DNA of 64,000 nt from Paraspadella gotoi. Its lineage: Eukaryota; Animalia; Chaetognatha. Every line of letters starts with the position of its first letter. Position 1 is the stretch's first letter. Of this stretch, positions 1 to 56,705 are shown piece by piece. Under the pieces are notes generated by a model. It was given only the letters and a program-made list of their open reading frames with translations. It was not told the origin of the DNA and did not search any database. A program made the position numbers and the translations under genes. The stretch spans positions 5,446,578 to 5,510,577 of the forward strand of contig CM119267.1 of the NCBI GenBank assembly GCA_051294375.1. The letters are read 5' to 3'.

Positions 1-1340
1 TCAGTAAAAAAATCTTAGACGGAAAATGACGACTGTCAGTGCAAATAACGTTCCATTATGTCACACGATTCGTAAAACAGATCCATCGAATTTACCAATC
101 GGTCATGCTCGAAATATTTTTCAATAAATCAGGTGCCCTGAGCATTAGTCCAATTCGACATGCAAGTTTGAAATCCGTAGAAAAAAAATCACAGGTTTGC
201 GAAGGGAGTACGTAATACTAAAAACTATCGAACCGAGATGGCAATTTTTTTAAATTAATGTTTGATTACTTCTAGGAATGATCCACATAAAATAATTTGG
301 GTCAAGATTGAATGAAAAATTAAACAAATGTTTAACTTGATTTCCAAACAGTTTTATCAAAGTTCAAAATTAAAAATCAGAATCAACAACTGATATCTTT
401 CACTATCATTTAAGTTCGGAAAAAAATTTGATCTACGATCATTAATTAATAAGTAATAAGTGATTATAAATAAAATGGCAGCAGCCGTGAAACAATGTCA
501 GAGCGACGTCTCGCCAGAACTTATTTTAAACTAGTAAATGTTAAAAAATATTAAACAAAAACATAAAATGCAACGAAATTTGTGCTTATCACGTAAATTC
601 AAAGTTTCGAAACTATAATTAAATGAAAAAAATTATAAAATCTTTTGGAAAATCACGTATTCTGTAAATTTTGCATAACTGGCTTATTTATTTTTTAAAT
701 AATAGAATAATCATAAATTGCTCAGGCCAGATAGAAAAAAATTGAAAAAAGAAATATAGAAATATCGTGAAAGACTAGTCTGATGTCGAATATATATAAT
801 CGCAATTAATAGGCATTGCAATCCGCCACTAAAAATGCGCGATGACATAAAATTCAATAATTCTTAATCCCCAAAACAATTAGATTAGGTGATGCTATTT
901 GAACTAAAAATTGCATTGTTTGTCCTAACTGCTTTAACTGTTGCACGCTTTTGCTGACCGTGGACTACATTTGATAGAGCCTTGTTTCTTTAAGGACAAT
1001 AAAGATTAAAAAAAAAAACCCGATTCAAATAGCACCACCCACCACGGAAGTCATTTAAGAAAACACGGGTCCAAATAAATAAATCTTTTCACGAACATAA
1101 ATAAGATATCTTTTCACTCTGGAACAAATATTACCTCTTAATAAACAAAGATTCATAAAATCTTGAAACGAGAATCGAAAGCTACAGCTACACTAAGGGC
1201 GAATTTGACATTATTCCATGACAAACAAAAGTATAGATAACTTTGATTTTAAAGTTGAAAAAGAGAAATGCGACCCGCCACGAAGCGTAAGCGACAAACA
1301 AATTTTGTAAAAAATAAAACCAATACCCATCTGAATTTCG

Positions 1341-3466
1341 TCACTTAAAGCAATTGGCTTCGGTCGGGGTATCGTGGAGGCAACGCCTTCGTCTCGGGAC
1401 GATATCCACATCTTCGTCGATCAACCAATCGTTGACCATTTTCTCGTTGTCGTTGTCGTCCCGAAAAGACGAGACGAAAGCGGCGATGTTCGCGCCCTCA
1501 ACCGGGCCATTACTTTGATGCTCATCCGCGGTTCTATCGTCGAGATTAAAACGCGGTCTCGACCGAGAATTGACGTCTTCGATGACGAAGTGCTTCGGAC
1601 TTTCCTCCGATCCGAAACCCAGCAATGGGGTGCTGGAGCGGATGCGTTGGCGCAGGTTTTCGCACTTTTCCTGCGCCATCTCGTAGAGTTTCTCTGGCTG
1701 CGGTAAGTGCATTAGAAGGTTGTTGTTGCAATGATGCAAGTGCATGAGCAACTTGTCCAAGGTATCCTGGTCGTAAAGGGACATGCGCCACGAGTCGATG
1801 ACGACGACGAGCACTGAGAACGCCATGACTATGGCGACGGCGCCGAGAGACCAATCGTAGCAACCCGCGTCCACAGATTCCGGATCTCGGGTTATCCTTT
1901 CACGGTAGTCGTCTAAAATGGCGTTCATCTGCACGTTCGTTGCCAGAATGCCAAAGATGTGAAATAGTTGGTGCGAGTGACCTTTGGAGAGGAGAAAGTT
2001 CTCTTTCAAAGTTATGTATCCGTAACATTGAATAGTGAAATTGACTCTCACCGAGGATGTCGAATCTTCCCGGGGCGAACCGTTCGGGAAAATGGGCGGC
2101 ATAGAGAAGAGCCGTGAGAATGACCAAAAGAAATTGGCGGGCGTGAGATGAGGTAGCGCTGGCGCAGAGAGACTCGGGGTCGAAGCAGGTCGTCGTAAAA
2201 AAACGAATCAACAGCGGAATCGAATCCCAAACGTAAGGAAGGGAGAAGGCTGAGAAAGGGTGGAGGATAAAGGAAAGAAAGAGTTAACAAAAACCTACCA
2301 CCAGGTCTTGCAACAGGATTACTTTTTAAATATAAATATTAAATAAAATTATCTACTACTGTAGTCTCACGGCAAGTATCTTTTTAAATGTTAATAAAAT
2401 TCTATGAAATCTCACCCGTTAGACGGAAAATTTTGCAAAGTTTATGATATTCGATGAATCGTGATTCGCAAGAGAGAATGACGCTCACGCACGCGTTAAA
2501 AATGGCGATCGGAATAAATATGTCAGAATAACGAGTGTTGCGTAAAATTGGTGGGAAGGAGTAGGCCTTGGAAATTAAATGGGAGGAATAATAATAATAA
2601 ATAATAATAATAAATAATAATAATAATAATATTTCTTTTGTTTCCCACTCAGTTTTTAGTTCTCACGTATGATAGGAATTTATTTTCCTAGCGAATAACA
2701 GCCAAGCCCCTTTCATCGAATCCCCTACCCGATAGCCAATGGCTGCGCCGAGAGAGTAAGTCGCGATGCCCGCGTAGTCGCAAAAGAAACAAATGTGTCG
2801 CCATCGTGATGACATGGAAGATAAGGCGTGGGCGATAGAGGAGGTAATCGGGTAGGCGCAGCACGTGATCATAAATGCAAGCAGAGGCCACGTTGTTGAA
2901 TCTCTGCGAAAGTCGAGTCGAGTCGACAGAGAAACGATACGCCAAAGAAAGAACCAAAAAGGAAGAAAATGCGTCCAAAAGTTCAGCATCTGCAAAAACG
3001 AAGAAATTTTAAAAGGCGAGTGACAGCGAGAAACTTGAAGACTCTTGTTTTCAAGTATCTCGTCCACGCTCACCTCGTTATTAAGTCCGAAACAATACAA
3101 TAGGCTCTGGACGAAAGAGGCTTTCGGCGAGCGGTAGCCAGAAATGATATAAAGCTCCTTAAAATGGGGAGGGACCCCGTGAACGTCGTAAGTCTCATCG
3201 CGTTGCGTCGACATTTCCGATAATTTGACGTCTAAGTCGTCGAGTTTTGCAGCCGCTTGCAATCTGACGTAGTCCAGGGGGTATTTGGAAAGTTGTTAGG
3301 TTCATACGTAATATATTATATTGATATATCAACTATATTACTTGGCTCGAGATACAGCTTTGGTGAGGGTGGCGTCGATGTCCTCCAGTTTTGCAGCCGC
3401 TCTGAGTCTCGCCTCCTCTACCGCCGCTTTGATCGTCTCCTTGGATTTTTTCGGTGAAAAACTCAT
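1341..3466 (-). CDS. PAQR-family (HlyIII) 7TM protein, membrane progestin receptor (PAQR5/6)-like; 6 exons approx. 3466-3342, 3263-3074, 2989-2729, 2566-2416, 2249-2052, 1981-1341
   Basis: PAQR motifs VPPHFKELYIISGYR, NEMLNFWTH, SSIAH, FFCDYAGI, FPERFAPGRFDILGHSHQLFH. Exons join in frame across GT-AG introns. Confidence 0.9.
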
Positions 3467-4564
3467 TTTTTCTTCGTGGATCCAAAGCGCGGCAAGGGGA
3501 CTTTTACTACGTCGACGTTCGACGGATTCGAAAGCGTCGAGTTTTTATGAATCGCATGAGTCTTACTCTTAGTTAAAAAGAGTATCTCTCTTTATTCTAA
3601 AGTATTTTGCCGTCTCAGAGGCATCACGACGAGTTTCCGCCGGTACGATCCGACGCTTAGATTCGACTCCGGTGAAGTACAGACCAAACTTTCGTTATAA
3701 GGAACAACTTCTAAATAAAACGCACAATATAAAAGAATAACACATTTGAACTTGAACATAATTAAAAAGGTTTCAAAAATTACGAAACAAACCGAAATTA
3801 CTCAAACGTAGTGAATACTAATCATAAATGTTACCTTAACTTTGGGGCGACAATCACGGACTAATATCTATATTGGTTAAAATATAAACTACTGAAGCGA
3901 ATTCAAATGAATGACGATTGACGAATATTATATCCCGTGAAGAATAAAATTAAAATAACGAATTCAATTAAATTCTTAAGCCAAGATTAACAAATAACTA
4001 CGCAGTGCAGTAAGGTTGTTAACCCTTCAAAGAACATCACTTTCAAGTTTTAGGCTCTGACATGACGTTTCGTTGTAAAAAAAATACGTAAGGCTAATGA
4101 GTAATTTCATTCCGTCCACTTTAGTACAATTTCAATTTAATCCAAATCCTACACCAATTCGACCACGTCGAAATACTTCTTTTAAATGATAAGACAAATA
4201 AAAAAAGACATGCATCATTGACATACCCCGCGAGCCAAATCATTGACACGAAGAGAAATCGAGAAAAACAATTTTTTTTATTAGATAGAAAAATGTTCTA
4301 AAGCCATTTTAACCAATATTTTGGACATTTCAATCATGGGTATATAATAAAATTTTCTTAATGATTGCGATGTCACGTATCATTAATTTTTATTTCGTGT
4401 CAATTGATTTGGCTCACGGGTAGAACAAGGAAACCAATAATAGTTTTTACATTATATCCGGCTCTGGGTAATTTTTTAATTATGAAAAGCTTACTGACAT
4501 TGCCAGTATTCCATAAACATTGGCGACCTCTTAGAAAACATGAACCGCTTTTATTCCCCAATTC

Positions 4565-5059
4565 CTATGGGTTGAATTGATTCGGCCCGGCGTTGGACAA
4601 GGCGATTCCGATAATGATTCCATAGAGGACGAGAGTGATAACGATGAGGCCGAGCCCGATGCCGAGACCAAGCAGAGAAAACTTCTTGGCCTGCTGACTG
4701 TTGGTGACCGCGTTTTCGCGGTCTCCACGCATGCGTGCCGCTCGACACTCGCTCGACTTGAGGATGGCCACGACTCCGAGGGGCAAACAGCAACAGACGG
4801 TGACCAGGATAGCCATTACAAGATGATCGGGGGCCTCGTGCTCCGGAATTACAGGCGCCTGCACGTAGACTACCTGAGGCTGACCTACGACCGGAGCCGA
4901 CTGGTTGCCTTGAATCATGTAGCCGGCCGGAGGCGCCGTATAAACAGGCGCGTTGGGCGCCAAGACGGGGGGCGCCATCGGGGGAGGCATCGGCTGATTG
5001 GCCACCTCGTTATACTGAGGTGGCTGATCCTCCTCCAGCTTGTTGTACTTGTCGGCCAT
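4565..5059 (-). CDS. CD225/dispanin family membrane protein (PRRT/IFITM-like), intronless
   Basis: Pro/Tyr-rich N-terminus, then APDHLVMAILVTVCCCLPLGVVAILKS...GD...A...S..AKK and a C-terminal hydrophobic helix, the typical CD225 layout. Confidence 0.9.
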   Translation of the reverse strand: MADKYNKLEEDQPPQYNEVANQPMPPPMAPPVLAPNAPVYTAPPAGYMIQGNQSAPVVGQPQVVYVQAPVIPEHEAPDHLVMAILVTVCCCLPLGVVAILKSSECRAARMRGDRENAVTNSQQAKKFSLLGLGIGLGLIVITLVLYGIIIGIALSNAGPNQFNP

Positions 5060-5632
5060 TCTTTGGTTGGTGACGGAAACGCAGCAGTAACGTACGAAAA
5101 TTAGATCTGAACAAGAAAACAGCGGTTGTACGTTATACTAAGCCACTTTCCGTGAGCCAAATAGCGGCTCGCTTGCATACGTCGAGTAAAATTCAGGCTG
5201 GTAAAGTTGGCCAATCAATGAAATTAACATTCTTTGTCAATGAATGAAAACATGCGTAAGACGCATTTAGGAGTCACCTGTAAAAACCGTTTATGACGAG
5301 TCAATTGTCAAAAGAATTGCTCAATAATTTCCAAACGATGAATATGTAGACTCTGTTTTGACGAGTAGCTTGACCCAGGATCGCAGACGAATGTTTTGAT
5401 CGCGTAAACAAAAGTAAATCTGAATCGAGGCCTCGAGTCGAGAGACTTTTCATCCGCGACGATGGAATTGGGAGAACAAATGAACAGCGAGATGAGATTG
5501 GCTCGANNNNNNNNNNNNNNNNNNNNNNNNNACACTTTCCTACCCACATACAAAATTTCAAGTCAGTGAATTATAGAGCCGAGATCTGCTGTAAGCTAAA
5601 AATAAGACTGAATAACAATCATGCCGACCAAC

Positions 5633-5959
5633 CTCCCGGCGAGACTACCATCCAAAGTTGTCAGCAGGCTGTCGACAACTTGATGCGCCTTTGGGGGCCA
5701 CATCATGTCGGCCGGTTCGATTTTCACAGTCAAAACGTCTAAGCCCTTTTCGTTGTAGTAGTCGCGGAACTTTCCTAAGGCGCTGGACTTCGCCAGAAGC
5801 CAAGAGTATATGACGACAACGGGGGGCACCTCGCCGAAACGATCGTTGGCTCGAACATTTAATTGCAAGTTTTGGTCAACTTTGTCACTGAGGAGAGTTC
5901 GCCGTTTTTGGCTATTTGGGAAAGCTCCCTTTTCCAGAAAGTCCTCGTCCATAGGTTCC
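5633..5959 (-). CDS. Internal exon of a TMEM53-like (DUF829) gene; the rest is lost in the adjacent gap or outside the window
   Basis: PVVVIYSWLLAKSSALGKFRDYYNEKGLDVLTVKIEPADMMWP resembles the DUF829/TMEM53 N-terminal motif. Flanked by a cag acceptor and a GTTGGT donor. Confidence 0.65.
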
Positions 5960-7367
5960 TGGCAAACATAACTATTGTAAAAATGGAAGAAAAATATATT
6001 ATGTTCGCATCTTCAGATTACATTGATCAGTAAAAAAATCTTAGACGGAAAATGACGACTGTCAGTGCAAATAACGTTCCATTATGTCACACGATTCGTA
6101 AAACAGATCCATCGAATTTACCAATCGGTCATGCTCGAAATATTTTTTCAATAAATCAGGTGCCCTGAGCATTAGTCCAATTCGACATGCAAGTTTGAAA
6201 TCCGTAGAAAAAAAATCACAGGTTTGCGAAGGGAGTACGTAATACTAAAAACTATCGAACCGAGATGGCAATTTTTTTAAATTAATGTTTGATTACTTCT
6301 AGGAATGATCCACATAAAATAATTTGGGTCAAGATTGAATGAAAAATTAAACAAATGTTTAACTTGATTTCCAAACAGTTTTATCAAAGTTCAAAATTAA
6401 AAATCAGAATCAACAACTGATATCTTTCACTATCATTTAAGTTCGGAAAAAAATTTGATCTACGATCATTAATTAATAAGTAATAAGTGATTATAAATAA
6501 AATGGCAGCAGCCGTGAAACAATTCAGAGCGACGTCTCGCCAGAACTTATTTTAAACTAGTAAATGTTAAAAAATATTAAACAAAAACATAAAATGCAAC
6601 GAAATTTGTGCTTATCACGTAAATTCAAAGTTTCGAAACTATAATTAAATGAAAAAAATTATAAAATCTTTTGGAAAATCACGTATTCTTGTAAATTTTG
6701 CATAACTGGCTTATTTATTTTTTAAATAATAGAATAATTCATAAATTGCTCAGGCCAGATAGAAAAAAATTGAAAAAAGAAATATAGAAATATCGTGAAA
6801 GACTAGTCTGATGTCGAATATATATAATCGCAATTAATAGGCATTGCAATCCGCCACTAAAAATGCGCGATGACATAAAATTCAATAATTCTTAATCCCA
6901 AAACAATTAGATTAGGTGATGCTATTTGAACTAAAAATTGCATTGTTTGTCCTAACTGCTTTAACTGTTGCACGCTTTTGCTGACCGTGGACTACATTTG
7001 ATAGAGCCTTGTTTCTTTAAGGACCATAAAGATTAAAAAAAAAAAAACCGATTCAAATAGCACCACCCACCACGGAAGTCATTTAAGAAAACACGGGTCC
7101 AAATAAATAAATCTTTTCACGAACATAAATAAGATATCTTTTCACTCTGGAACAAATATTACCTCTTAATAAACAAAGATTCATAAAATCTTGAAACGAG
7201 AATCGAAAGCTACAGCTACACTAAGGGCGAATTTGACATTATTCCATGACAAACAAAAGTATAGATAACTTTGATTTTAAAGTTGAAAAAGAGAAATGCG
7301 CCCGCCACGAAGCGTAAGCGACAAACAAATTTTGTAAAAAATAAAACCAATACCCATCTGAATTTCG

Positions 7368-8637
7368 TCACTTAAAGCAATTGGCTTCGGTCGGGGTATC
7401 GTGGAGGCAACGCCTTCGTCTCGGGACGATATCCACATCTTCGTCGATCAACCAATCGTTGACCATTTTCTCGTTGTCGTTGTCGTCCCGAAAAGACGAG
7501 ACGAAAGCGGCGATGTTCGCGCCCTCAACCGGGCCATTACTTTGATGCTCATCCGCGGTTCTATCGTCGAGATTAAAACGCGGTCTCGACCGAGAATTGA
7601 CGTCTTCGATGACGAAGTGCTTCGGACTTTCCTCCGATCCGAAACCCAGCAATGGGGTGCTGGAGCGGATGCGTTGGCGCAGGTTTTCGCACTTTTCCTG
7701 CGCCATCTCGTAGAGTTTCTCTGGCTGCGGTAAGTGCATGAGAAGGTTGTTGTTGCAATGATGCAAGTGCATGAGCAACTTGTCCAAGGTATCCTGGTCG
7801 TAAAGGGACATGCGCCACGAGTCGATGACGACGACGAGCACTGAGAACGCCATGACTATGGCGACGGCGCCGAGAGACCAATCGTAGCAACCCGCGTCCA
7901 CAGATTCCGGATCTCGGGTTATCCTTTCACGGTAGTCGTCTAAAATGGCGTTCATCTGCACGTTCGTTGCCAGAATGCCAAAGATGTGAAATAGTTGGTG
8001 CGAGTGACCTTTGGAGAGGAGAAAGTTCTCTTTCAAAGTTATGTATCCGTAACATTATATAGTGAAATTGACACTCACCGAGGATGTCGAATCTTCCCGG
8101 GGCGAACCGTTCGGGAAAATGGGCGGCATAGAGAAGAGCCGTGAGAATGACCAAAAGAAATTGGCGGGCGTGAGATGAGGTAGCGCTGGCGCAGAGAGAC
8201 TCGGGGTCGAAGCAGGTCGTCGTAAAAAAACGAATCAACAGCGGAATCGAATCCCAAACGTAAGGAAGGGAGAAGGCTGAGAAAGGGTGGAGGATAAAGG
8301 AAAGAAAGAGTTAACAAAACCTACCACCAGGTCTTGCAACAGGATTACTTTTTAAATATAAATATTAAATAAAATTATCTACTACTGTAGTCTCACGGCA
8401 GTATCTTTTTAAATGTTAATAAAATTCTATGAAATCTCACCCGTTAGACGGAAAATTTTGCAAAGTTTATGATATTCGATGAATCGTGATTCGCAAGAGA
8501 GAATGACGCTCACGCACGCGTTAAAAATGGCGATCGGAATAAATATGTCAGAATAACGAGTGTTGCGTAAAATTGGTGGGAAGGAGTAGGCCTTGGAAAT
8601 TAAATGGGAGGAATAATAATAATAATAAATAATAATA

Positions 8638-8677
<40 letters not shown>

Positions 8678-9509
8678 TAAAATATTATTTATTTACTATT
8701 TTAGTTCTCACGTATGATAGGAATTTATTTTCTAGCGAATAACAGCCAAGCCCTTTCATCGAATCCCCTACCCGATAGCCAATGGGCTGCGCCGAGAGAG
8801 TAAGTCGCGATGCCCGCGTAGTCGCAAAAGAAACAAATGTGTCGCCATCGTGATGACATGGAAGATAAGGCGTGGGCGATAGAGGAGGTAATCGGGTAGG
8901 CGCAGCACGTGATCATAAATGCAAGCAGAGGCCACGTTGTTGAATCTCTGCGAAAGTCGAGTCGAGTCGACAGAGAAACGATACGCCAAAGAAAGAACCA
9001 AAAAGGAAGAAAATGCGTCCAAAAGTTCAGCATCTGCAAAAACGAAGAAATTTTAAAAGGCGAGTGACAGCGAGAAACTTGAAGACTCTTGTTTTCAAGT
9101 ATCTCGTCCACGCTCACCTCGTTATTAAGTCCGAAACAATACAATAGGCTCTGGACGAAAGAGGCTTTCGGCGAGCGGTAGCCAGAAATGATATAAAGCT
9201 CCTTAAAATGGGGAGGGACCCCGTGAACGTCGTAAGTCTCATCGCGTTGCGTCGACATTTCCGATAATTTGACGTCTAAGTCGTCGAGTTTTGCAGCCGC
9301 TTGCAATCTGACGTGTCCAGGGGGTATTTGGAAAGTTGTTAGGTTCATACGTAATATATTATATTGATATATCAACTATATTACTTGGCTCGAGATACAG
9401 CTTTGGTGAGGGTGGCGTCGATGTCCTCCAGTTTTGCAGCCGCTCTGAGTCTCGCCTCCTCTACCGCCGCTTTGATCGTCTCCTTGGATTTTTTCGGTGA
9501 AAAACTCAT
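7368..9509 (-). CDS. PAQR-family gene, duplicate copy, with an apparent 1-bp frameshift near 8785
   Basis: Same exons as 1341-3466. An extra G (aatgggctgc versus aatggctgc) turns GAAIGYR into GAAHWLS. Confidence 0.8.
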
Positions 9510-10604
9510 TTTTTCTTCGTGGATCCAAAGCGCGGCAAGGGGACTTTACTACGTCGACGTTCGACGATTCGAAAGCGTCGAGTTTTTATGAATCGCATGA
9601 GTCTTACTCTTAGTTAAAAAGAGTATCTCTCTTTATTCTAAAGTATTTTTGCCGTCTCAGAGGCATCACGACGAGTTTCCGCCGGTACGATCCGACGCTT
9701 AGATTCGACTCCGGTGAAGTACAGACCAAACTTTCGTTATAAGGAACAACTTCTAAATAAAACGCACAATATAAAAGAATAACACATTTGAACTTGAACA
9801 TAATTAAAAAGGTTTCAAAAATTACGAAACAAACCGAAATTACTCAAACGTAGTGAATACTAATCATAAATGTTACCTTAACTTTGGGGCGACAATCACG
9901 GACTAATATCTATATTGGTTAAAATATAAACTACTGAAGCGAATTCAAATGAATGACGATTGACGAATATTATATCCCGTGAAGAATAAAATTAAATAAC
10001 GAATTCAATTAATTCTTAAGCCAAGATTAACAAATAACTACGCAGTGCAGTAAGGTTGTTAACCCTTCAAAGAACATCACTTTCAAGTTTTAGGCTCTGA
10101 CATGACTTCGTTGTAAAAAAAATACGTAAGGCTAATGAGTAATTTCATTCCGTCCACTTTAGTACAATTTCAATTTAATCCAAATCCTACACCAATTCGA
10201 CCACGTCGAAATACTTCATTATTAAATGATAAGACAAATAAAAAAAGACATGCATCATTGAATACCCCGCGAGCCAAATCATTGACACGAAAGAAATCGA
10301 GAAAAACAATTTTTTTTTATTAGATAGAAAAATGTTCTAAAGCCATTTTAACCAATATTTTGGACATTTCAATCATAGGGTATATAATAAAATTTTCTTA
10401 ATGATTGCGATGTCACGTATCATTAATTTTTATTTCGTGTCAATTGATTTGGCTCACGGGTAGAACAAGGAAACCAATAATAGTTTTTAACATATATCCG
10501 GCTCTGGGTAATTTTTTAATTATGAAAAGCCTACTGACATTGCCAGTATTCCATAAACATTGGCGACCTCTTAGAAAACATGAACCGCTTTTATTCCCCA
10601 ATTC

Positions 10605-11099
10605 CTATGGGTTGAATTGATTCGGCCCGGCGTTGGACAAGGCGATTCCGATAATGATTCCATAGAGGACGAGAGTGATAACGATGAGGCCGAGCCCGAT
10701 GCCGAGACCAAGCAGAGAAAACTTCTTGGCCTGCTGACTGTTGGTGACCGCGTTTTCGCGGTCTCCACGCATGCGTGCCGCTCGACACTCGCTCGACTTG
10801 AGGATGGCCACGACTCCGAGGGGCAAACAGCAACAGACGGTGACCAGGATAGCCATTACAAGATGATCGGGGGCCTCGTGCTCCGGAATTACAGGCGCCT
10901 GCACGTAGACTACCTGAGGCTGACCTACGACCGGAGCCGACTGGTTGCCTTGAATCATGTAGCCGGCCGGAGGCGCCGTATAAACAGGCGCGTTGGGCGC
11001 CAAGACGGGGGGCGCCATCGGGGGAGGCATCGGCTGATTGGCCACCTCGTTATACTGAGGTGGCTGATCCTCCTCCAGCTTGTTGTACTTGTCGGCCAT
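10605..11099 (-). CDS. CD225/dispanin family protein, duplicate copy
   Basis: Protein identical to 4565-5059. Confidence 0.88.
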   Translation of the reverse strand: MADKYNKLEEDQPPQYNEVANQPMPPPMAPPVLAPNAPVYTAPPAGYMIQGNQSAPVVGQPQVVYVQAPVIPEHEAPDHLVMAILVTVCCCLPLGVVAILKSSECRAARMRGDRENAVTNSQQAKKFSLLGLGIGLGLIVITLVLYGIIIGIALSNAGPNQFNP

Positions 11100-13079
11100 T
11101 CTTTGGTTGGTGACGGAAACGCAGCAGTAACGTACGAAAATTAGATCTGAACAAGAAAACAGCGGTTGTACGTTATACTAAGCCTACCTTTCCGTGAGCC
11201 AAATAGCGGCTCGCTTGCATACGTCGAGTAAAATTCAGGCTGGTAAAGTTGGCCAATCAATGAAATTAACATTCTTTGTCAATGAATGAAAACATACGTA
11301 AGACGCATTTAGGAGTCACCTGTAAAAACCGTTTATGACGAGTCAATTGTCAAAAGAATTGCTCAATAATTTTCAAAGGATGAATATGTAGACTCTGTTT
11401 TGACGAGTAGCTTGACCAGGATCGCAGACGAATGTTTTGATCGCGTAAACAAAAGTAAATCTGAATCGAGGCCTCGAGTCGAGAGACTTTTCATCCGCGA
11501 CGATGGAATTGGGAGAACAAATGAACAGCGAGATGAGATTGGCTCGAATGGCACGACACTCCCAGTCGCAATCAGACCATCGTTGGCGACATTGATTTGT
11601 AAGTTGGGGGAGACTAACTCAGTAAGGTGGTTAAGAATTGAATTAAGAACCTGCTCAAACGAAAATTTAGACATTTTTAAAAAATTTGAATAGACAAAAT
11701 TTTTTATATTACTCCTATTCCATATTTAATTTTTTAATATTTATTTATAAATAGGAAAGGCTAAAAAATTTTTTGGATTTTTTATTTTTAAGATCGATTC
11801 GGTAGCTTGCAAAAGTTGTCTATACAAGTATAATTCTTTTTCGTATTTTGATCAAAGTATGTGAAAAATATGAAAACTATTTATATCATCATCATCATCA
11901 TTTTTCGATAATTTTATTACTTTTTCTTAATTTTGACCAAGAAAACATAATATTTTTCGAAAGTTGTAGTTAAATTTTTTATTAACTTTTATGCTCTATC
12001 AGAATCCATCAAAAAAAGTTAAGATTGATTAAAAAAATTTTTTATCATTATATAGTAATATTGTAATTTTAATAGACAATAAAAGCATTAAAATTGAACT
12101 TTTTTTAAAAATTCTTTTTTTACCTAAAAGTAGACTTCAAGACTAAAGTTTTGAACCCCCGCCCCTATCGAATTTAATTTCATAGTAGATTTCTATTGTA
12201 AGGACATAAAAACGTTAATCTAGTAAATTTTAATCTAGGTGAGCCAGATAGTAGTACACGTTATTTAGTCAAAGTTTTACCTTATTACCTTAATTTATAA
12301 GTAACCGGTATGCAAGTAACAATTTTTTGGGAAGCCCTATTTTGTTTTCACCTACCCTCGTCTATTTCTAGTTCTAGTCTAGTTCTAGTCTAGTTCTACG
12401 AATATTCTTTCAATCTTTTGTTGACATAAAATTATAAATAATAATGTTTAATTATTAAAATACTAAATTATTATTATCATATTATTATTATCAATATATA
12501 CTAAATAATTTTGAGTAATATCAATATTATTGAATCATTTTTTTATTGAAAATAAAAACACGTTCGAAACTGAAAAATTTATTTAGGTCAGAGAGGCACA
12601 CTCACTAAGCATCTCGTAATCGTTGGAGCAAATTGCTTCATACAAACGTCAAATACGCAAGAATTAATAAAAATTTCAACCAATAATCATTTTTAACATA
12701 GCTCACATAACGTCACGGTCTCAAATTCAATTCCGTCCATACAACGTGATGAAACACTTATACAATTTTTTGTAATAAAAAAAAATGAGAAAAAAAGATT
12801 TATGGACGAGATCACAGACGCGATACTCCATGCAGTTATTTTACTCGGCCGAAAACAAGATAGGTTGAGAGGGGTTGAGAAGGGTGCAGTAGGAAAGAGA
12901 AATGGAGAAAGGTGAAAAAAAAAACATCCACATGGGTTCTTCTTCAAATCGAGTTAAGCGGGGATTTTTTCGAGGTCAGGTGCCACATGTTGTCCGGTCG
13001 GCCGCTTCGGTTCCGTTCCCGACACGATTGATACTTCGACCTAAATACGAGAGGGGGAACTGTTGTCGCAAGCTACTGA

Positions 13080-20368: not shown

Positions 20369-22478
20369 CACGGTTCTTTTATAGAGGAAAAAGAAATGGA
20401 AATATACCATCTCTGGAATGATAAAAACCTGAAAGGTTGCGTCTGGACAAGAGCTTAGGCTAAGTCAAAAAATTTTTCCAAACTCAGTTTTTTTTTTAAA
20501 TTGCAGTTGAAGTTGGTAAGTTAATTTTTGAGAAAATTTGATAACTTTTGTATAATTTGCAAAATATAGACTCAATTCAAAACATCTATATGTCAAACGA
20601 TATCAGTAAACCGAGAGCTTTAATTTAAGACACTTCTCAACTTTCCTGCGACTTTTTGGCTAAAAGTTATTAATCAAAATATATTATTTTTTTCTTTAAA
20701 AAAGTAATGGAAATGGTGAGTATTATTGAGAATATAATAAGACTTTAATCTAAAAAATTGAGGATACCAACGAAGTTTTACAGACAGTCTTCTTTCAATT
20801 AATTCATACAATAAAATTTTTCTTCAAGTTAAATAAGGCACATCATCCCCAAAAAATTGAAAAAAATTAATTAAATTTTTTAAATAATTACCACTAATGA
20901 TATGATATAATTTCCTTAATTATATGGTAGGAAACTATAAGATGTGACTTTATTTGAGCCTATTTGCCAACATTTTAACGATAAATATTTATTGAGATAC
21001 TACAAAAAAAGCCCAAAAATCTTAAAAAATGTAATTTTTAATTAATTTAATCATATCTCAGTTCATATATGACTTATTTTAAGTCAAATGATTTTATTCA
21101 GTCAGATTAAAGTCTAAGAACATATTAAATTCCATTTAGTTGTATATTTTATCATAATTTAATCAGGACTATTTAATTTTCAGCCAATTTTACCAAAATT
21201 ACATATACTTTTGCTTTATTTTTACAGCAACAAAGTACTAAAAACAGGTAAATAGAAATATTGATGATTAAATCTGTTAGCCAAAAGACTTAGAATATAT
21301 TTATATAGGTTAAAAATTTTCTCATAAAGATTTCAATGATATGAATGAATCAATAAAATAAAAAATTATATATATAAATTAAAGATATTAAATCTTCTTC
21401 AACTTTAATTTATATATATAATTTTTTTTATTTTAGAACTGTCATTATCATCATAAATCTTTATAGAAAATATTTTTAAACCTATATAATACTTCTAAGG
21501 TCTTTTGGCTACAGATTTTTATCATCAATTATTCTATTTACCTGTTTTAGTTACTTGTTGCTGATTAAAAATCAAAGTATATGTAAATTTGGTAAAGAAA
21601 TTGGCTGAAAATTAATGTCCTGATTAAACATTATTGATTTAAAATAAATACAACTTAATGGGTATTATAATATGTGCCTTACACCTTTAATCTGGCTTGA
21701 AAATAAAATTCATTTGACTTAAATAAGTTTATATGACTGCATGATATGATAAATATAATTCAAAAATTTACATTTTTAAAGATTTTATGGGCTTTTATTT
21801 GCGTAGTATCTCATAAAATATTTATTCCGTTTAAAGAGTTGGCAATAGGCCAAAATGTAAGGTCACATCCTTAGGTTTCTAGTCATATAAATTAATGAAA
21901 ATTATTATAAATCATTTATGGTAATATTTTTAAAAATTAATCGTAGATTTTTTCAACTTTTTTGGCGGGATGATGTAGCCAGTAATCTAGTTTGAAAAGA
22001 AAATTTTATTTATAGAATTCAATTGAAAGAGACTGTTCTATAAAACTAGTTGTATCCTCTATTTTTTAGATAAAGTCTTATTATATTCATCATAATACTC
22101 ACCATTATTTACTTTTAGACGCAATCTAACATAGGAAAACAATAATATATTTTGAATTCGAATAACTTTTAGCCAAAAGTCGGAAGAAAGTTGGGAGTGA
22201 TCTTAAATTAAAGCTCTCGGTTTTATCTGATACATGTTTGCAATTAAGATGTTTGAATAAGTCTATATTTTGCAAAATTAATACAAAAGTTATCATTTCT
22301 CAAAAATTAAGCTTACCAACTTCAACTGCCAATTTAAAATAAAAACTGAAGTTTGGAAAATTTTGACTTAGCCTAAGACCTTTTCCAAGACAGCAACCTT
22401 TTCAGGTTTTTATCATTGCCAGAGGATGTCATATTTTCCATTGCTTTTTTCTTTTTCCCTCCTATAAAAAGAACCGTG
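20369..22478. mobile_element. ~2.1-kb foldback (fully palindromic) non-autonomous element with apparent 4-bp TSD TACT
   Basis: tact|cacggttcttttatagagga ... tcctataaaaagaaccgtg|tact. Arms are reverse complementary along ~1 kb, with the centre at ~21385-21402. AT-rich, no ORF. Confidence 0.8.
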
Positions 22479-31849: not shown

Positions 31850-31990
31850 TCAAAAAAAAAAAAAAAAACCCAAAAACATCAAATAACAACATATATATAT
31901 AATATATATAATCCAGCCTCGATTCAGACGTCCCATCTTTTTTAAAGACACACCCGGAACCCCTTAAACACGTATCCGACGCTCACTCAC

Positions 31991-32437
31991 CTCCGGGCCC
32001 TGAGAGCCTTATAACTTCTCACCGACCCCAAGACCCTCCAGCGGATGGCCTCCCTCTCTACCAAAAATCTCACCCAGATTGACCGTCGGGTGCGATCTTT
32101 CCCAAACTTTTCCCTCCCAAGCCAAAACCCTTTTTTCAATCCCCATCAGCCCATTACCTCTCACCGACGGGGCCAAACCCACTGCGTTTCGGTATCTCTT
32201 TTACCTCCCACCCCCAATTCTCCCCTCCCACCCGCCGCCCCAACCCTCAAGAAACTTACCCACGACGAGCAGAGGTGATGTGAGCAGTTGCCCTCGCAAC
32301 CTTTGTATCCCCCCTTGCTGCGGGCGGTCGTCGAGCGTGACGCCGTTGATGGTCATCGTGTAGGGTGGAGCCTTTTGGCTTCGGGCCGAAGCACGAACGA
32401 TTGCGGGAAAATCGATCGTCGTTGTTTCGAAAGGGGT
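31991..32437 (-). CDS. Two phase-compatible exons of an unidentified gene (32437-32260 and 32057-31991)
   Basis: tag|...|GTAAGT and tag|...|GTGAGT boundaries. The joined frame is open: TPFETTTIDFPAIVRASARSQKAPPYTMTINGVTLDDRPQQGGIQRLRGQLLTSPLLVVEREAIRWRVLGSVRSYKALRAR. Confidence 0.45.
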
Positions 32438-32987
32438 CTACTACCGCCGAGGGAGGGACTGATTCCCTTTTTTTTAAGGGGGGGCGGGGTGGAAATGAGG
32501 GGGGGGCGGGGTGGAAATATACGTAGGCGTCCTTTTTTTCTAGTTTTAATAACCGTGGATTTGGGGAAAAAGAGTTATGGGGGCAACCTTGCTTTATTAG
32601 AGTTATTTGAAAATAATGCAATTTTATAGAATTAAAATTTAGAAGAGTTTGAAATTAATTTTCAACAACGGTTTATTTCAATAAAAAACGGACATGTTTC
32701 GGCTTAACTACGAGCCTTCATTCATTCATCATACCACAATGTCTAAGAATTAAAATTGAATTAAATTAAAACGCTTATCCCTCCAATAACGTAACTAGAC
32801 CACCAGTCTTCAGTCGGATCTTTTTTATCACTTTGCCAAAAATTCGAAAGAAAAGACAAGATGAGACGAATACCATATTATTATTCGTATTTTTAAGTTA
32901 ACCTATTCTGACAAATCAATGAAATCGACAAACGAAGATACACAAATAGTCACGTTATGAACGCGACGAATGAATGTAATAAACTGT

Positions 32988-33256
32988 AAAAAAAGTAGGC
33001 GACGCGTCGGAACCGAGGACGCTCTGATGACGGTCTGCAGGATACTACGGAGTTTACCCTGCAGACGCGACTCAGATGACGCTATGTGAAGCACACAGGT
33101 GGACTGAGTAATACTCAGTGAGTATGCAATGCACATAGCGCCCGCGGGTACCCTGAGTATGGCATAACAGTATTCCCCGTACGTCCTTGACCGGTTCCAT
33201 CAACGTAACCAGGCCCCCGAATATACAGGGGTTACAGGTCAACGTCAAACCCGCCT
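32988..33256 (-). ncRNA. Candidate structured ncRNA (~270 nt), family unassigned
   Basis: Multiple nested complementary stems, 5'/3' end pairing, G-U wobbles only on the minus strand, a terminal T7 run, and balanced base composition inside AT-rich flanks. Confidence 0.65.
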
Positions 33257-33983
33257 GAGGAAAATTCGCGTGAAGTGAATTAGTAATTTGAGCGGGAATA
33301 TTTCTTTAGTAGGAGATAAATGAGGCGATTGATTGATTGATTGACTGATGAGTGGATTCATTTTTTGAATTTTTTTGCATGATCATAGTATTTCCTTTAA
33401 TTTCCTTGTGTTTTGATAGTTATTTTAAATAATGTATTCTCGAATATGTTTGTTCCATGAAACTAGGTAGAAAAAAGGTGAGTGAGGCTGGAAAAAAAAA
33501 NNNNNNNNNNNNNNNNNNNNNNNNNNNNNNNNNNNNNNNNNNNNNNNNNNNNNNNNNNNNNNNNNNNNNNNNNNNNNNNNNNNNNNNNNNNNNNNNNNNN
33601 NNNNNNNNNNNNNNNNNNNNNNNNNNNNNNNNNNNNNNNNNNNNNNNNNNNNNNNNNNNNNNNNNNNNNNNNNNNNNNNNNNNNNNNNNNNNNNNNNNNN
33701 NNNNNNNNNNNNNNNNNNNNNNNNNNNNNNNNNNNNNNNNNNNNNNNNNNNNNNNNNNNNNNNNNNNNNNNNNNNNNNNNNNNNNNNNNNNNNNNNNNNN
33801 NNNNNNNNNNNNNNNNNNNNNNNNNNNNNNNNNNNNNNNNNNNNNNAGAGAGAGAGAGAGCCGGGTCCGATGAGAGATATTTGGGCAGCCCTTTATCGGT
33901 AGTTCGGGGTCACGGAAACGACGCCGCTAAGAGTCACGCCGCGTAAAAAGGACGCCGCGAGGGAACGGCGCCCCTGGGAGTCC

Positions 33984-38270: not shown

Positions 38271-41130
38271 TGATCGTCGAAAAATAAGAAATAGAAACGC
38301 AAAGAATTGGATTGAAGATATTTCCTTTTCTATTTTTTTTTTTCTTTTTTATTCCTTTTTGTCTCTATTTACATTGTTTTATTGTTATTTTTCTTATTTC
38401 TTCCCATTTTGCGCGCAGGGTCTGACGCACGATGAGAGAAGACGAATCCGCGCCTCGTTTCGCTTCCTGCGAGGTGTTTCCCTGCTGGGTGCCGCGCGGG
38501 CGGCGTCGGATCGTCGCGCTACGGCGGGCGGCTGGCGTGGCGCGGTGCGCTTCCTGACGGCGAGAGTAGGTTTCCTCGGCGCGTCGCCTTTCGAAACCAC
38601 GTGGTGGCGGTGCCTGTCGGGGTCGTCGCCAATTCGCGCTGTCTTCGGAAAGCCTGCATTGATCAAGACCGAGGTAGGCGTTGTTTTTGAGGAGATGGGT
38701 GGAAATGAGGGAAACTTTTTTTGTGTTCGATTAATTGAATTTTGGAATTTTTCTCTTGTAAAATATAGAATTGAGAAGTGTTTTTCAAGAGAAAAGTTTA
38801 GAAATGGTCACATAGTTAACGCAATTGCGAGAAAAAGGCCTTTTTAAGGGTAGTAGCAAAAGACAAGTGACAAAAGGTAAAGGTCAAGTCCATGAGAAGC
38901 GAATGGGTAAGTCTGGAGCGATTTTGGCGATATAAGGGAAGGAAGAACCGAAGCGGAGAACTTCGATGTTTTCTCAGTCGGAGAATCTTTTTTTATACTT
39001 TTCTCTCACTCTCTCTCTTTCTCTCTCTCTCTTCTCTCTTTCTCTTCTCACTCTCTATCTCACTGCTCTCTCTCTTCTCTCTCTCTCTCTTCTCCGCGTT
39101 AAAAATAAAAGTTCGATTATATTTTGAGGATGAGAAGTCTTGAGTGTTGAAAGGTTAGTCGAAGGTGTTGAAGCCCGTTGAATTCCACTCGAGTCAATAA
39201 GAGGATTTCGCGGCGGGGGGGGGGGCGGGAAGGCGAGGGGGGCGAGTGAGCAAAAAAAAAATTATTTTTATTTTGTTAGTGAAGAAATTGAAGAAATAGA
39301 TGTACTAGATTTAGAATCGATCGATAAGGAAAAGTGGAAAAAATAAGCAGACACGCGCTAAGAAAAAAAAAAAAGAATGAAAAAATAAGGAAATCGCCAA
39401 AGAGAGAAAAAACAAAAACAAATTGGAATTTGCAATGGCAGAATGGCGCGATTGTGAAAACAGATTTTTTCTCGACGTGGTTGAAGATTACGAAATCGAA
39501 GGCTCATTAAAAACCTTGTTGTTGTTTTTTTGTTTTGCGTGTTTGTAGTGTTTCTCTTCTTTTTCGCCGCCTTTGGCTTTTCGTTTTGCGTTTTCATCGC
39601 TCCTTTTGACAAAAGTTCATTTGAGGGAAATTGGAGATAAGTATCCGAGTAATTTTCTTCGCGCTCTGTCGTGTCTTCCAGGTTAACATTGGAATAAAAT
39701 ATGAGGCGTTGAATAAAAGACGTCCGTCTTCGAAGGCTGGCGAAAAGAGAATGGTTTGAGAGTGGATTCTTTTTTTTGAGTGGCGAAGCTGTTACGTTAT
39801 CTGGAAGAGGAAAGATTTAAATTGTTCTTCGTGTCGATTTTATCAATCAAGGACAGAAGAGGACGTTTCGTCTCTTTGGAATACGCTCTCGACATCACCT
39901 TTCTTTCAAAGATACTCTTTGCTTCATTCTACGATGCAACGATCCGTCCGTTTGCAGTCAATTATGGTGCCTTAATGCCAGCACGGATACTCGACGTTGA
40001 AGGAAGAGTCTTCCTCGCCGAGGGGGTCGGAACTTTTTCATTCTTCCTCGCGAGAAATTACATAGGTTCATTTACTTGATTGAAATCGGAAAGAAAGGGA
40101 GGGAAAGGAAAGAGTGAGAGAGACGAGAGGAGAGAGAGAGAGAGAGAGAGAAGAGAGAGCAGGAGAGAAGAGAGAGAGGAGAGAGAAGAGAGAGAGAAAG
40201 AGAGACTTTTTCCTCGCAAATCTCTTTAGCATTGATATCGGCCAAAACGAGAGGCAGCTGAGGATTGCGCAAACAGAAGCGTAATCGAGTTTCGATGTGA
40301 AGCAAATTCGGGATTCAGCGCTAAAAACTTCTCTGTTTTATCTTTGCTTTTATTGTTTGTTTTTTATAAAATTCTATGTTTTTTAAATTTTCGAATTTTT
40401 GTCTTTGAAGGCGGATAAAGATTACGACGGAAGTTCTATTTGTAATGAATATTTTATAAACCTGTTCACAATGGTTTTTCCTTGTTTTTAACTCTTTTAT
40501 AATGTTTGAACTGAGTCTTGATGATTGATGCGTTATGAATATTTATAATTTAAATAATATAATTTATAGAGATGTATAGATAGAGGGGAAAGAAGTTCAG
40601 AATTATATAGATATATAAAAATCATATTTCATATATATATAGAGAGAGTACGACTGAAGATCGGTCATGCCTATAGCGGGGGTGAAGATGTTGCAATCCC
40701 AACTACAACACAAACTGTCCCAATGAGAAATATATGACATCGAAAAAACATATTATTAAAGTTTCGATTAGTCTCTATAAATGGGTTATTTTTGAAAATC
40801 CGCATTGATCGAAAAAAGTTCAAAAAATGGTCCAGAAACAGTAACTTTTCCGTACTAGTTAATATAAGAAGTTTATGTCACGAAGAGACGGAACGAATTT
40901 TTTTTGAAAGAATTTAAAATTCTTCGCGATGAAGATGTTGGAGAAAAAAAATTCGAAGTTTTGGGAAAAAGGTCATGTTTATGGTCTTGAAGAACACGAG
41001 AAATAAATTCCGAGAAAAAAAAAATTAAAAAAGGTTTATCTTTGAAGAAGAGTCGGAACTCGGAAGCCCGAAAATGCGTTGAAAGAAATTCGAGGCAAAA
41101 AAGTAGTTGGAAGGAAGAGGTCGAGGCTCA

Positions 41131-41445
41131 ATAGAGGCTCTACTAGAGGCTACTAGAGGCTCTACTAGAGGCCCCTACTAGAGGCTCTCACTAGAGGCCT
41201 ACTAGAGGCTCTACTAGAGCTCTACTGAGGCCCTATAGCAGGCTCTACTAGAGGCTCTACTCAGTAGGCTTTACTAGAGGTCTACTAGAGGCCCTTCTAG
41301 AGGCCTACTAGAGGCTCTACTAGAGGCCTCTACTAGAGGCTCTCTAGAGGCCCTTTCTAGAGTGCTCTACTAGAGACTCATCCTAGAGGCCTACTAGAGG
41401 CTCTACTAGAGGCCTCTAACTGAGGTCTAAACTACTACTCTAGTC
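41131..41445. repeat. 10-13-bp minisatellite (tagaggctctac); duplicate at ~54686-55000
   Basis: More than 20 degenerate ctactagagg(ct) units. Confidence 0.95.
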
Positions 41446-43150
41446 TAAATCAATGTTGTAAGAAGCCTCTCTCATCCAAAACATTTAAAAAAAAGAACGG
41501 TCGTAATTCGCAATGTGTTGCGCCGCAGTGACTTATTTTTACGTGTATTTCCCTTGACAAATGATATGACATGACGATTGCAAGTTATGAGGCATTTTTA
41601 ACGTAAGTGGGATGAACGAGGAACGACCGACCGACCGAAGACCGTCCGAACTAACGTGACTTATAGAGTAGCTGCGCGAGTATTGCTGCGCAAATAAAAA
41701 AAGGTGAAAACCGCAAAACAAAGAATCTAAATAGGAATAAAATAGAAATAAAAGAAGCTCCTATTATTTAGATTAAAATGAAAGATAATCTTGGAAAGCG
41801 TCACAAAGCGCGTTTGAAAGAAGCTCCACTGCTCTCTCTCTCTCTTGGCTGAACGCAGTCTCCTCTTAGCCGCGGGTCGGAGGGGTCGCCGCGTTCTCTC
41901 GCAGACCGACGAAGCCTCGACTTTTAATGCGCAGAGTTTGTTTTTTGGGGGCGGGGGATTTCCCTGGGGGGGGGAGGGAATGCGGTGGTGGGGAAGGGAA
42001 AAAAGTGTGATGCGATTGGTAAGTGAGAAGAAGGAGAGGAAGAGATGAGAACGTCGAAAGAAGGTGGGAGGGGAAGGTGGAGGGGGTGGAGGGGTAGAGT
42101 CTTCGCTTCGGGGTTAAGATTGAATGGGCGGAAAAAAAAAAGGTAGGGGGAAACTTCGGATGGGGGGGGAGAGACGAGTTTTTTTTCGAGGGGAAGGCTA
42201 AGACGATGGGAGAAAAAAGGCGCGGGCGGCTCGTTTTCCTTCTCGACCTAAGGGAGACCCGATACGAGGGCCTTTTCGATGCTTCACGAAAACTCGAGAG
42301 TGGAGAGAATGCGGCCCGTGGGGGGAAGGGGGGAAGGGCGGAAAGGGGGAAGGGCGGGAAGGGGGGGAAAGGGGGAAAGGGAAAGAGGGATTTGTTTTTT
42401 TTTTTTTTTAAGTTAAAATTTGGTAAAAAAATTTTTGGTTTCACGACGAACAGGAATTGAAGAGAAAAAAAAAACTTTACTCGGCCGAGAATTTTTTTGT
42501 TTTGTATTCGTGAAATAAATGAGGTATGGTTGTAACTTTAAACTAACTATAAGTTAAAACATGAAACAGAACATTTAAAATTCCATGGCTGGTCAGAATG
42601 GACTGAAGAAGGGACGCAAAGACGAAAAAGCCTTCAAAGGACGGCCATTAATCGGCGTGCAAATGAACGAGAGAGGAATCATCATATTCAATGTGTGTTT
42701 TTTTTAAAGAAAATTAATTATTGAATTCGTCATCGCTGAATTTATTCGACGATCGAAAATCTAAGGCAAATCGTTTTTTGGTCGTTTTAAAATCGTTTAC
42801 CCGTGGACGTGCTTCGGCGCAGAGGTGGAATGTGGTGCTGCAACTTATATATTAAGAAGAAAACGGGTCTGATGGAATCGAGATACCGCTTGACTTGGGC
42901 AATTTAGTAGGGGGAAACCACGGATTTAAACTTTCTAATCTTCGTGTTCGAAATTATTTTATCATTAATAATTAAATCATATAATTAATTAATTATTAAT
43001 TAATTATAATTAATTAATGAAAAAATCTTAATTGCTCAACGGACGGGCGATGACGTAATTTCAACTCTTGGCTTCTACTTTTGGTTCCGATGGTGATCAA
43101 TCGCCGTTTTAGATACTCGGCTGATACCAGTGTGTGGACAGAAGGAAGAA

Positions 43151-54600: not shown

Positions 54601-56705
54601 AGAAGAGTCGGAACTCGGAAGCCCGAAAATGCGTTGAAAGAAATTCGAGGCAAAAAAGTAGTTGGAAGGAAGAGGTCGAGGCTCAATAGAGGCTCTACTA
54701 GAGGCTACTAGAGGCTCTACTAGAGGCCCCTACTAGAGGCTCTCACTAGAGGCCTACTAGAGGCTCTACTAGAGCTCTACTGAGGCCCTATAGCAGGCTC
54801 TACTAGAGGCTCTACTCAGTAGGCTTTACTAGAGGTCTACTAGAGGCCCTTCTAGAGGCCTACTAGAGGCTCTACTAGAGGCCTCTACTAGAGGCTCTCT
54901 AGAGGCCCTTTCTAGAGTGCTCTACTAGAGACTCATCCTAGAGGCCTACTAGAGGCTCTACTAGAGGCCTCTAACTGAGGTCTAAACTACTACTCTAGTC
55001 TAAATCAATGTTGTAAGAAGCCTCTCTCATCCAAAACATTTAAAAAAAAGAACGGTCGTAATTCGCAATGTGTTGCGCCGCAGTGACTTATTTTTACGTG
55101 TATTTCCCTTGACAAATGATATGACATGACGATTGCAAGTTATGAGGCATTTTTAACGTAAGTGGGATGAACGAGGAACGACCGACCGACCGAAGACCGT
55201 CCGAACTAACGTGACTTATAGAGTAGCTGCGCGAGTATTGCTGCGCAAATAAAAAAAGGTGAAAACCGCAAAACAAAGAATCTAAATAGGAATAAAATAG
55301 AAATAAAAGAAGCTCCTATTATTTAGATTAAAATGAAAGATAATCTTGGAAAGCGTCACAAAGCGCGTTTGAAAGAAGCTCCACTGCTCTCTCTCTCTCT
55401 TGGCTGAACGCAGTCTCCTCTTAGCCGCGGGTCGGAGGGGTCGCCGCGTTCTCTCGCAGACCGACGAAGCCTCGACTTTTAATGCGCAGAGTTTGTTTTT
55501 TGGGGGCGGGGGATTTCCCTGGGGGGGGGAGGGAATGCGGTGGTGGGGAAGGGAAAAAAGTGTGATGCGATTGGTAAGTGAGAAGAAGGAGAGGAAGAGA
55601 TGAGAACGTCGAAAGAAGGTGGGAGGGGAAGGTGGAGGGGGTGGAGGGGTAGAGTCTTCGCTTCGGGGTTAAGATTGAATGGGCGGAAAAAAAAAAGGTA
55701 GGGGGAAACTTCGGATGGGGGGGGAGAGACGAGTTTTTTTTCGAGGGGAAGGCTAAGACGATGGGAGAAAAAAGGCGCGGGCGGCTCGTTTTCCTTCTCG
55801 ACCTAAGGGAGACCCGATACGAGGGCCTTTTCGATGCTTCACGAAAACTCGAGAGTGGAGAGAATGCGGCCCGTGGGGGGAAGGGGGGAAGGGCGGAAAG
55901 GGGGAAGGGCGGGAAGGGGGGGAAAGGGGGAAAGGGAAAGAGGGATTTGTTTTTTTTTTTTTTTAAGTTAAAATTTGGTAAAAAAATTTTTGGTTTCACG
56001 ACGAACAGGAATTGAAGAGAAAAAAAAAACTTTACTCGGCCGAGAATTTTTTTGTTTTGTATTCGTGAAATAAATGAGGTATGGTTGTAACTTTAAACTA
56101 ACTATAAGTTAAAACATGAAACAGAACATTTAAAATTCCATGGCTGGTCAGAATGGACTGAAGAAGGGACGCAAAGACGAAAAAGCCTTCAAAGGACGGC
56201 CATTAATCGGCGTGCAAATGAACGAGAGAGGAATCATCATATTCAATGTGTGTTTTTTTTAAAGAAAATTAATTATTGAATTCGTCATCGCTGAATTTAT
56301 TCGACGATCGAAAATCTAAGGCAAATCGTTTTTTGGTCGTTTTAAAATCGTTTACCCGTGGACGTGCTTCGGCGCAGAGGTGGAATGTGGTGCTGCAACT
56401 TATATATTAAGAAGAAAACGGGTCTGATGGAATCGAGATACCGCTTGACTTGGGCAATTTAGTAGGGGGAAACCACGGATTTAAACTTTCTAATCTTCGT
56501 GTTCGAAATTATTTTATCATTAATAATTAAATCATATAATTAATTAATTATTAATTAATTATAATTAATTAATGAAAAAATCTTAATTGCTCAACGGACG
56601 GGCGATGACGTAATTTCAACTCTTGGCTTCTACTTTTGGTTCCGATGGTGATCAATCGCCGTTTTAGATACTCGGCTGATACCAGTGTGTGGACAGAAGG
56701 AAGAA

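Follow-up and report, generated by a model that had tools for sequence, protein, structure and literature searches.

In SRP RNA, the symmetric loop of helix 8, with its invariant A-C pair and adjacent G, binds SRP54, the conserved apical loop of helix 6 binds SRP19, and SRP72 is bound by the 5e motif of helix 5. The Alu domain of this RNA follows published rules. Helices 3 and 4 are built around a UGUNR motif (PMC4605306), positions 1-46, 2-45 and 3-44 are paired, G4-U23-G24 form a triad, and the loops pair as GGC-GCU (PMC12265939); in the human Alu domain there are three such loop-loop pairs (PMC8137916). Primate BC200 and free Alu RNAs, which come from Alu retroposons and stay near 7SL in sequence, supply the model of translation control through SRP9/14 (PMC12265939, PMC4357698), human Alu RNPs delivering SRP9/14 to 40S subunits and thereby damping initiation (PMC4357698). 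The SINE1 elements, for their part, occur in thousands of copies and carry LINE-related or A-rich tails (PMC7245038). Within the literature found, by which subscription journals are largely uncovered, Alu RNAs devoid of an S domain were reported from mammals and hagfish only, tracing to retroposons, and no report on a chaetognath 7SL was found.

Here we analyse a locus in a window of 64,000 nucleotides from the chaetognath Paraspadella gotoi (GenBank assembly GCA_051294375.1, contig CM119267.1, positions 5,446,578 to 5,510,577; coordinates below are those of the window). Our best reading is that it belongs to a family of 7SL-derived Alu-domain RNAs paralleling BC200. The RNAs are small, structured and likely of Pol III type; their first 44 bases would be an Alu domain of 7SL origin, engaging SRP9/14 and exerting its effect on ribosomes, a proposal to which we give slightly better than even odds (about 0.52). 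The family itself is real and conserved, and likely represents a new invertebrate variant of Alu-domain RNAs.

Fold and parts of the candidate RNA

When the region 33256-32988 was folded as the minus strand, an energy of -117.1 kcal/mol was obtained (z -5.97), and none of 200 shuffled sequences folded as well, whereas the same region read on the plus strand reached -97.3 kcal/mol (z -3.97). The plus strand was rejected as the RNA strand because of this weaker fold, because five G.U pairs become A.C on it, and because one extra pair is broken in a sister copy, copy K, described below. With energies corrected for composition, the RNA ranked 10th among 912 segments of 269 bases, and the nine segments above it consist of eight satellite or inverted repeats and one zero-energy regression artefact. 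The strongest folding signal of the window comes from a satellite at 41119-41448, with a duplicate near 54680-55000, composed of short, partly palindromic tandem units. A MITE-like inverted repeat, long and imperfect but with 18 perfectly paired bases at its ends, occupies 21173-21615.

An earlier description of the interval, made from the letters alone (hereafter the sequence-only reading), had listed a set of nested stems, favoured the minus strand, expected a fold better than that of shuffled controls and noted a U7 end on that strand. The two energies and the shuffles bear out its choice of strand and its expectation, the U7 end is present, and all of its stem sequences are found at the positions it gave. 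Six stems have mean pair probabilities of 0.82-1.0 on the minus strand, but the pairings 33070/33153 and 33205/33230 have a probability of 0.0. The six stems, all on the minus strand, are:

32997/33252, minus strand: terminal stem, mean pair probability 0.82
33009/33192, minus strand: stem, mean pair probability 1.0
33016/33182, minus strand: stem, mean pair probability 0.95
33033/33058, minus strand: stem, mean pair probability 1.0
33080/33132, minus strand: stem, mean pair probability 1.0
33103/33113, minus strand: inner hairpin, mean pair probability 0.96

Two further pairings, proposed in the same reading as signs of a switch or pseudoknot, are not supported: the alternative 33187/33237 has a probability of 0.0, and both are broken by changes in other copies. 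The change at 33241, present in six contigs of sequencing run X2, breaks the 33187/33237 pairing, and the copy K change at 33226 breaks the other one, with no compensating change among the variants listed in either case.

The gene can be divided into the following parts:

32988..33255, minus strand: body of the RNA gene, about 268 nt, from the fold z, the edge of the sister-copy match and position 1 of the Rfam SRP model, which falls on 33255
33212..33255, minus strand: Alu-type 5' domain, from a descriptor match and from helices 3 and 4, which the first 46-50 nt form when folded by themselves
33255-53/33214-12, minus strand: helix 2
33252-48/33240-36, minus strand: helix 3, five pairs
33231-28/33218-14, minus strand: helix 4, a C run with a G run, four pairs
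33232..33236, minus strand: UGUAA U-turn motif (UGUNR), from the sequence, with the triad G33252, U33236 and G33235
33181..33211, minus strand: 5' strand of a long proximal stem, helix-5-like, pairing with 33022-32996 (inner stems 1.0 and 0.95)
33143..33180, minus strand: distal helix X, with a weak stem, an internal loop and a 12-nt apical loop (33167-33156) that differs among copies
33078..33142, minus strand: distal helix A, with an 11-bp base stem and a variable apex
33023..33076, minus strand: distal helix B, with a 12-bp stem and a 10-nt variable loop, without the symmetric loop of helix 8
32988..32994, minus strand: U7 run, likely a Pol III terminator, from the sequence; copy K keeps at least five
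33268..33282 (-13 to -27), minus strand: conserved upstream element, likely a promoter, matched in sister copy B at identical spacing

The RNA probably starts at G33255, A33256 being different in some copies.

Sister copies, conserved stems and probable transcription

Copies of the gene were read from contigs of four of the nine sequencing runs listed (X1, X2, X3 and X9), from three studies, and the best-matching DNA run may be the source of the window itself. Diverged contigs in several runs replace the single gene of the sequence-only reading by a small family, to which, judging from these contigs, the gene belongs, with at least four sequence types at three or more loci, some types perhaps being alleles. 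Copy K, seen in X1 and X2, is about 82% identical over 32904-33256, where it has 41 different letters and 25 gap letters. Copy B, on a 610-nt contig of X3, matches 33126-33256 and is divergent on both sides; since its homology ends at 33256, the 5' edge of the family is fixed there. The match of a third sequence type reaches 33288 before diverging, and more types are visible in the variant table. The depth summed over 33221-33224 was 1155 in X2, as compared with 190-221 for the copy in the window, and 71 as compared with 14-27 in X3, which corresponds to about 3-6 copies, depth not being a true copy number.

The surroundings were described in the same way. About 260 bases downstream of the RNA gene, at 32626-32729, lies a short high-copy repeat with a depth of 41,000-116,000, against about 100-300 nearby (X1 and X2). 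Genes in the window are compact and encode CD225, HlyIII/PAQR and TPR domains, a TTC25 gene being present, and at 1341-6012 on the minus strand a HlyIII/PAQR gene, a CD225 gene and a neighbour are closely packed on the same strand in an operon-like layout. The TTC25 product matches JGI proteins at 75-77%, in whose clusters one marine-catalogue sequence also appears, and named proteins at 32-39%, among which tunicates rank highest, too little to discriminate a lineage. Near-identical tandem duplications (98.7% over 5.5 kb and 99.5% over 12 kb) occupy 1-11547 and 35962-61541, with 25-N gaps at or near their junctions, and are likely uncollapsed haplotypes. The exon 32260-32441 (minus strand) of the gene next to the RNA has an apparent frame break in the window and no Pfam match. 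Nineteen gap letters separate it from the contigs of X1, X2 and X9, and over 31953-32649 the long pieces listed match at only about 81-90%. This could be an assembly error or a diverged duplicate.

For copy K, 30 of its 41 substitutions were placed from the variants listed, shared variants being assigned by distance to the contig end. The 13 changes within 32996-33142 that lie outside the indel-rich apex 33097-33131 were scored, and those in the flank (7), the tail (2), the apex (1) and the 5' part (7) were set aside; the scoring assumed unchanged 5' partners at 33181-33199, and variants near contig ends may be under-reported. Stems contain eight of the scored changes, and the loop of helix B the other five. 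They comprise two compensatory pairs, 33139/33081 in helix A and 33063/33036 in helix B, and three wobble-consistent changes, at 33141 and 33091 in helix A and at 33008 in the proximal stem (U.G to U-A), with a single broken pair, at 33020 in the proximal stem. When changes were placed at random 200,000 times, at least two compensatory pairs arose in 2528 placements, at most one break in 28, and both together in 8. Judged by this comparison of copies, selection acts on the distal stems.

Loops are the variable part of the distal region. The 15 bases that copy K has lost all come from 33098-33131, in the apical part of helix A; its 10 inserted bases are confined to the 3' flank or the border of the U-run. 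At the same apex copy B carries unrelated letters that, compared by eye over 30 loose letters, form an 8-bp hairpin with one G.U pair that exists only on the minus strand. The changes listed for helix X (33157, 33158, 33159, 33163, 33164 and 33167) are all in its 12-nt apical loop, and among the variants listed all three distal apical loops differ between copies.

Upstream of the RNA, an ungapped comparison by eye of copy B with the window gave 2 of 11 matching letters beside the start, followed by 14 of 15 at 33268-33282, an element whose sole exact match within the window is at this gene. The RNA family is likely transcribed by Pol III; transcription would proceed from the element at -13 to -27, start at G33255 and end in the U-run. 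Processing from an intron, which had been offered as an alternative, is unnecessary, because the copies differ in their flanks yet share the upstream element. Run X9 contains a 186-nt contig with copy-B letters at a depth of 23.9 that, by its length, falls inside the RNA body. This run was counted as RNA-like because the 1570-nt contig that it has for the neighbouring gene ends at a splice donor, 32258, where DNA contigs continue to 32238, the RNA label being otherwise a guess. Expression is represented by one contig of one run, from a sister copy and not from the window's own gene, with ends and strand unseen. The strongly diverged, likely Pol III ncRNA of the sequence-only reading is in this way sustained on the minus strand by covariation among copies, the upstream element, the U-run and the RNA-like sister contig. 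The two tRNA genes have at -25/-26, at 30750-30741 and 30604-30594 on the minus strand, a motif resembling the upstream element of the RNA gene. The joint pattern, defined from these genes, occurs six times in the window, three of them at the RNA gene and the two tRNA genes, which is only a hint that they may share a Pol III upstream signal.

The 5' end and the competing readings

The search of Rfam returned no family at gathering score for the RNA, and only two tRNAs in the window. Metazoa_SRP (RF00017) nevertheless aligns with the RNA, its model position 1 falling on 33255; the score is 12.4 bits as compared with a gathering score of 70, the alignment covering the 5' domain and skipping the S domain (E-values 0.91 and 0.32; 10.8 bits and E 0.19 in truncated mode). 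It had the lowest E of five Rfam matches, 0.32 over 4227 families, or about 8e-5 for that model taken singly, a model chosen post hoc, and it was the only Rfam family listed for the 59-base 5' end. Model position 1 coincides with the base at which sister copies stop matching, and the register to 7SL is unreliable beyond position 56.

The rules of the Alu domain were then compared with the 5' end. Numbered from G33255, the RNA can form G1-C44, G2-C43 and C3-G42, with G4.U20 and G21 followed by UGUAA, so that both the UGUNR motif (33236-33232) and the G4-U-G triad of the SRP Alu domain (G33252, U33236 and G33235) are present; at position 2 of helix 2 both partners are swapped, from C-G to G-C, with respect to the printed Rfam consensus. 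A descriptor written from these rules, whose ranges were set with the sequence in view, matched once on both strands of the window, and in 20,000 shuffles it matched 4 times anywhere and never at the start. Two of the three loop-loop pairs can form (C-G and A-U) and the third is a mismatch, by eye, BC200 having GGC-GCU; in copy K the G of loop 4 at 33226 is altered and its partner has no listed change, but that position is 12 bases from the contig end, where a change may go unlisted. The seven changes listed in 33200-33255 all fall outside helices 2-4 and UGUAA, and fit a rival long hairpin almost equally. The echo of the SRP Alu domain that the sequence-only reading had passed over as incidental is, given the Rfam alignment and the descriptor, the best clue to the origin of the RNA, and homology of the 5' end with the Alu domain is, in our judgement, quite probable.

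Folding of the complete RNA gives another picture. In the full-length ensemble helix 3 has a probability of 0.07 and helix 2 of 0.003, and the Alu-constrained fold reaches -112.3 as compared with -117.1 kcal/mol without constraint, so that the naked RNA at full length favours its non-Alu fold, with the terminal stem and the long hairpin (33248-33237/33210-33200), by some 5 kcal/mol. Folded by themselves, the first 46-50 nt form helices 3 and 4, whereas the long hairpin appears with the first 60. Under the proposal of a 7SL-derived Alu-domain RNA, the 5' end would fold first into helices 3 and 4 and would then be held by SRP9/14, the competing long-hairpin fold serving as a possible off state. 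Since the SRP54-binding motif is absent and signal peptides would be unreadable, the particle may dock in the factor-binding site of the ribosome or deliver SRP9/14 to 40S subunits; such delivery, modelled on human Alu RNPs, would damp initiation. The distal part, three helices whose stems are conserved and whose apical loops are free, would act as a scaffold for other proteins.

Known classes of RNA were examined for their motifs. Strict and relaxed scans for the SRP helix 8 motif were empty; the stem of helix B consists of ordinary Watson-Crick pairs, one of which is compensatory. The helix 6 tetraloop is absent, the predicted distal loops being of 12, 3 and 10 nt and all varying among copies, and the distal 211 bases had no match to an SRP family in Rfam. 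Because helices 6 and 8 are absent, the RNA was not classed as an SRP RNA. Vault RNAs have an internal B box near the 3' end; no B box was found here, and positions 33139 and 33143 of the 13-mer once thought vault-like differ in 4-5 contigs, so that this echo was dropped. 7SK RNA has GAUC motifs in its 5' hairpin, RNase P and MRP RNAs share the P4 consensus, and telomerase RNA has a template longer than one TTAGGG repeat. The negatives reported earlier for these classes held: there is no GAUC on the minus strand and no Rfam match to 7SK, no P4 match and no Rfam match to RNase P or MRP, and neither of two TTAGGG-template patterns matched.

Several other candidates were considered and rejected. 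A repeat of 9-nt period at 33238-33224, considered as a telomerase template, is broken by the changes at 33224 and 33226. The plus strand has a heptamer resembling a hammerhead core, but by eye the other core motif is lacking. H/ACA, U3 and SL RNAs were considered through their motifs, and no Sm site was found. The Rfam matches to Ocean-V, sR3, snoU49, iscRS, DUF805b, mir-5882 and mir-8908 are short and far below threshold (E about 0.2-7). No homologue in another species was found in this analysis; a metagenome pattern match (L001) covers 20 bases in an apparent coding region of a marine contig, shows no wider similarity and was set aside as chance.

Against this background, the RNAs might instead form a conserved, structured Pol III family unrelated to 7SL, resembling an Alu domain by chance. 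The true fold would then be the terminal stem plus the long 5' hairpin, and the RNA a protein scaffold, possibly a 7SK, vault or MRP RNA past recognition. It is this fold that prevails in the ensemble, one G.U pair of the long hairpin becomes G-C through the change at 33202, the Rfam SRP score is far under threshold, and 7SK, vault and MRP RNAs frequently escape detection in invertebrates (PMC5006418, PMC2770079). However, chance would have to bring together model position 1, the 5' edge of the family, the UGUNR motif, the triad and the swap in helix 2, and an unrecognised 7SK, vault or MRP RNA would have to do without any GAUC, B box, P4-like or telomerase-template motif; we regard this reading as unlikely. 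Descent from 7SL could also be preserved in a low-copy or young 7SL-headed mobile element of SINE1 type, or in decaying 7SL duplicates, the structure being then a matter of mobility or a relic. SINEs of this kind have no S domain but retain the Alu fold (PMC7245038), and divergence of the copies to 82% identity agrees with it. The depth, which is not copy number, nevertheless corresponds to about 3-6 copies, where the repeat at 32626-32729 would have hundreds. Conservation extends to an element upstream of the transcript, an A-rich tail is missing and the changes spare stems. Together these features make a mobile or decaying origin distinctly unlikely.

Genuine SRP RNA genes, whose S domain had been remodelled past recognition while SRP54 and SRP19 changed to match, would be in keeping with the size, the several copies, the Alu end, the U-run and the long stem that runs to a multi-helix junction in the distal part. 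Twelve SRP genes are listed for Schistosoma mansoni (PMC2770079), basidiomycetes have non-canonical SRP RNAs (PMC4605306), and helix 5 is shorter in Plasmodium (PMC8137916). Yet all these basidiomycete variants keep the helix-8 A-C pair (PMC4605306), whereas helix B here is Watson-Crick, the three apical loops vary among copies, and the distal part matches no SRP family; true SRP genes are accordingly very doubtful. A further variant, in which the lineage has replaced or split its SRP RNA and the family is either its only 7SL, without helix 8, or a free Alu particle, is just as doubtful; as a free particle, its two folds would switch ribosome pausing and signal recognition would run without it.

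Comparison with described RNAs

With metazoan 7SL (RF00017) the candidate shares a 5' domain able to form helices 2-4, UGUNR, the G4-U-G triad, a long stem joining the ends, the U-run, the presence of multiple copies and the size. It differs in a helix 3 that is three bases shorter, in the absence of the helix 6 and 8 motifs, in a score of 12.4 bits, in three unrelated distal helices with variable loops, and in a 5' strand that reaches the junction after only about 30 nt. Basidiomycete SRP RNAs resemble it in being SRP-related and missed by standard searches; in them the helix-8 A-C pair is retained and Alu helices 3-4 are lost (PMC4605306), the opposite of what the candidate shows. If the genome were without another 7SL, the rule of a universal helix 8 would be broken.

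The SINE1 elements (Alu, B1 and hagfish SINE1-1_EBu) likewise have a 7SL-type head and have lost the S domain (PMC7245038); in contrast with them, the candidate is present in few copies, ends in a U-run without a tail and has a conserved element upstream. If our reading is true, an invertebrate family of few copies, equipped with an upstream element of its own and with selected stems, would be an independent origin of a BC200-like RNA, and would offer a clean test of Alu-domain function maintained apart from protein export and retrotransposition. Primate BC200 and free Alu RNAs are like the candidate in Pol III transcription, which is likely here, in the Alu domain, which is proposed here, and in having no S domain (PMC12265939, PMC4357698). 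In comparison with BC200, the candidate is far diverged, comes from an invertebrate and carries a structured insert of 170 nt that is kept by covariation.
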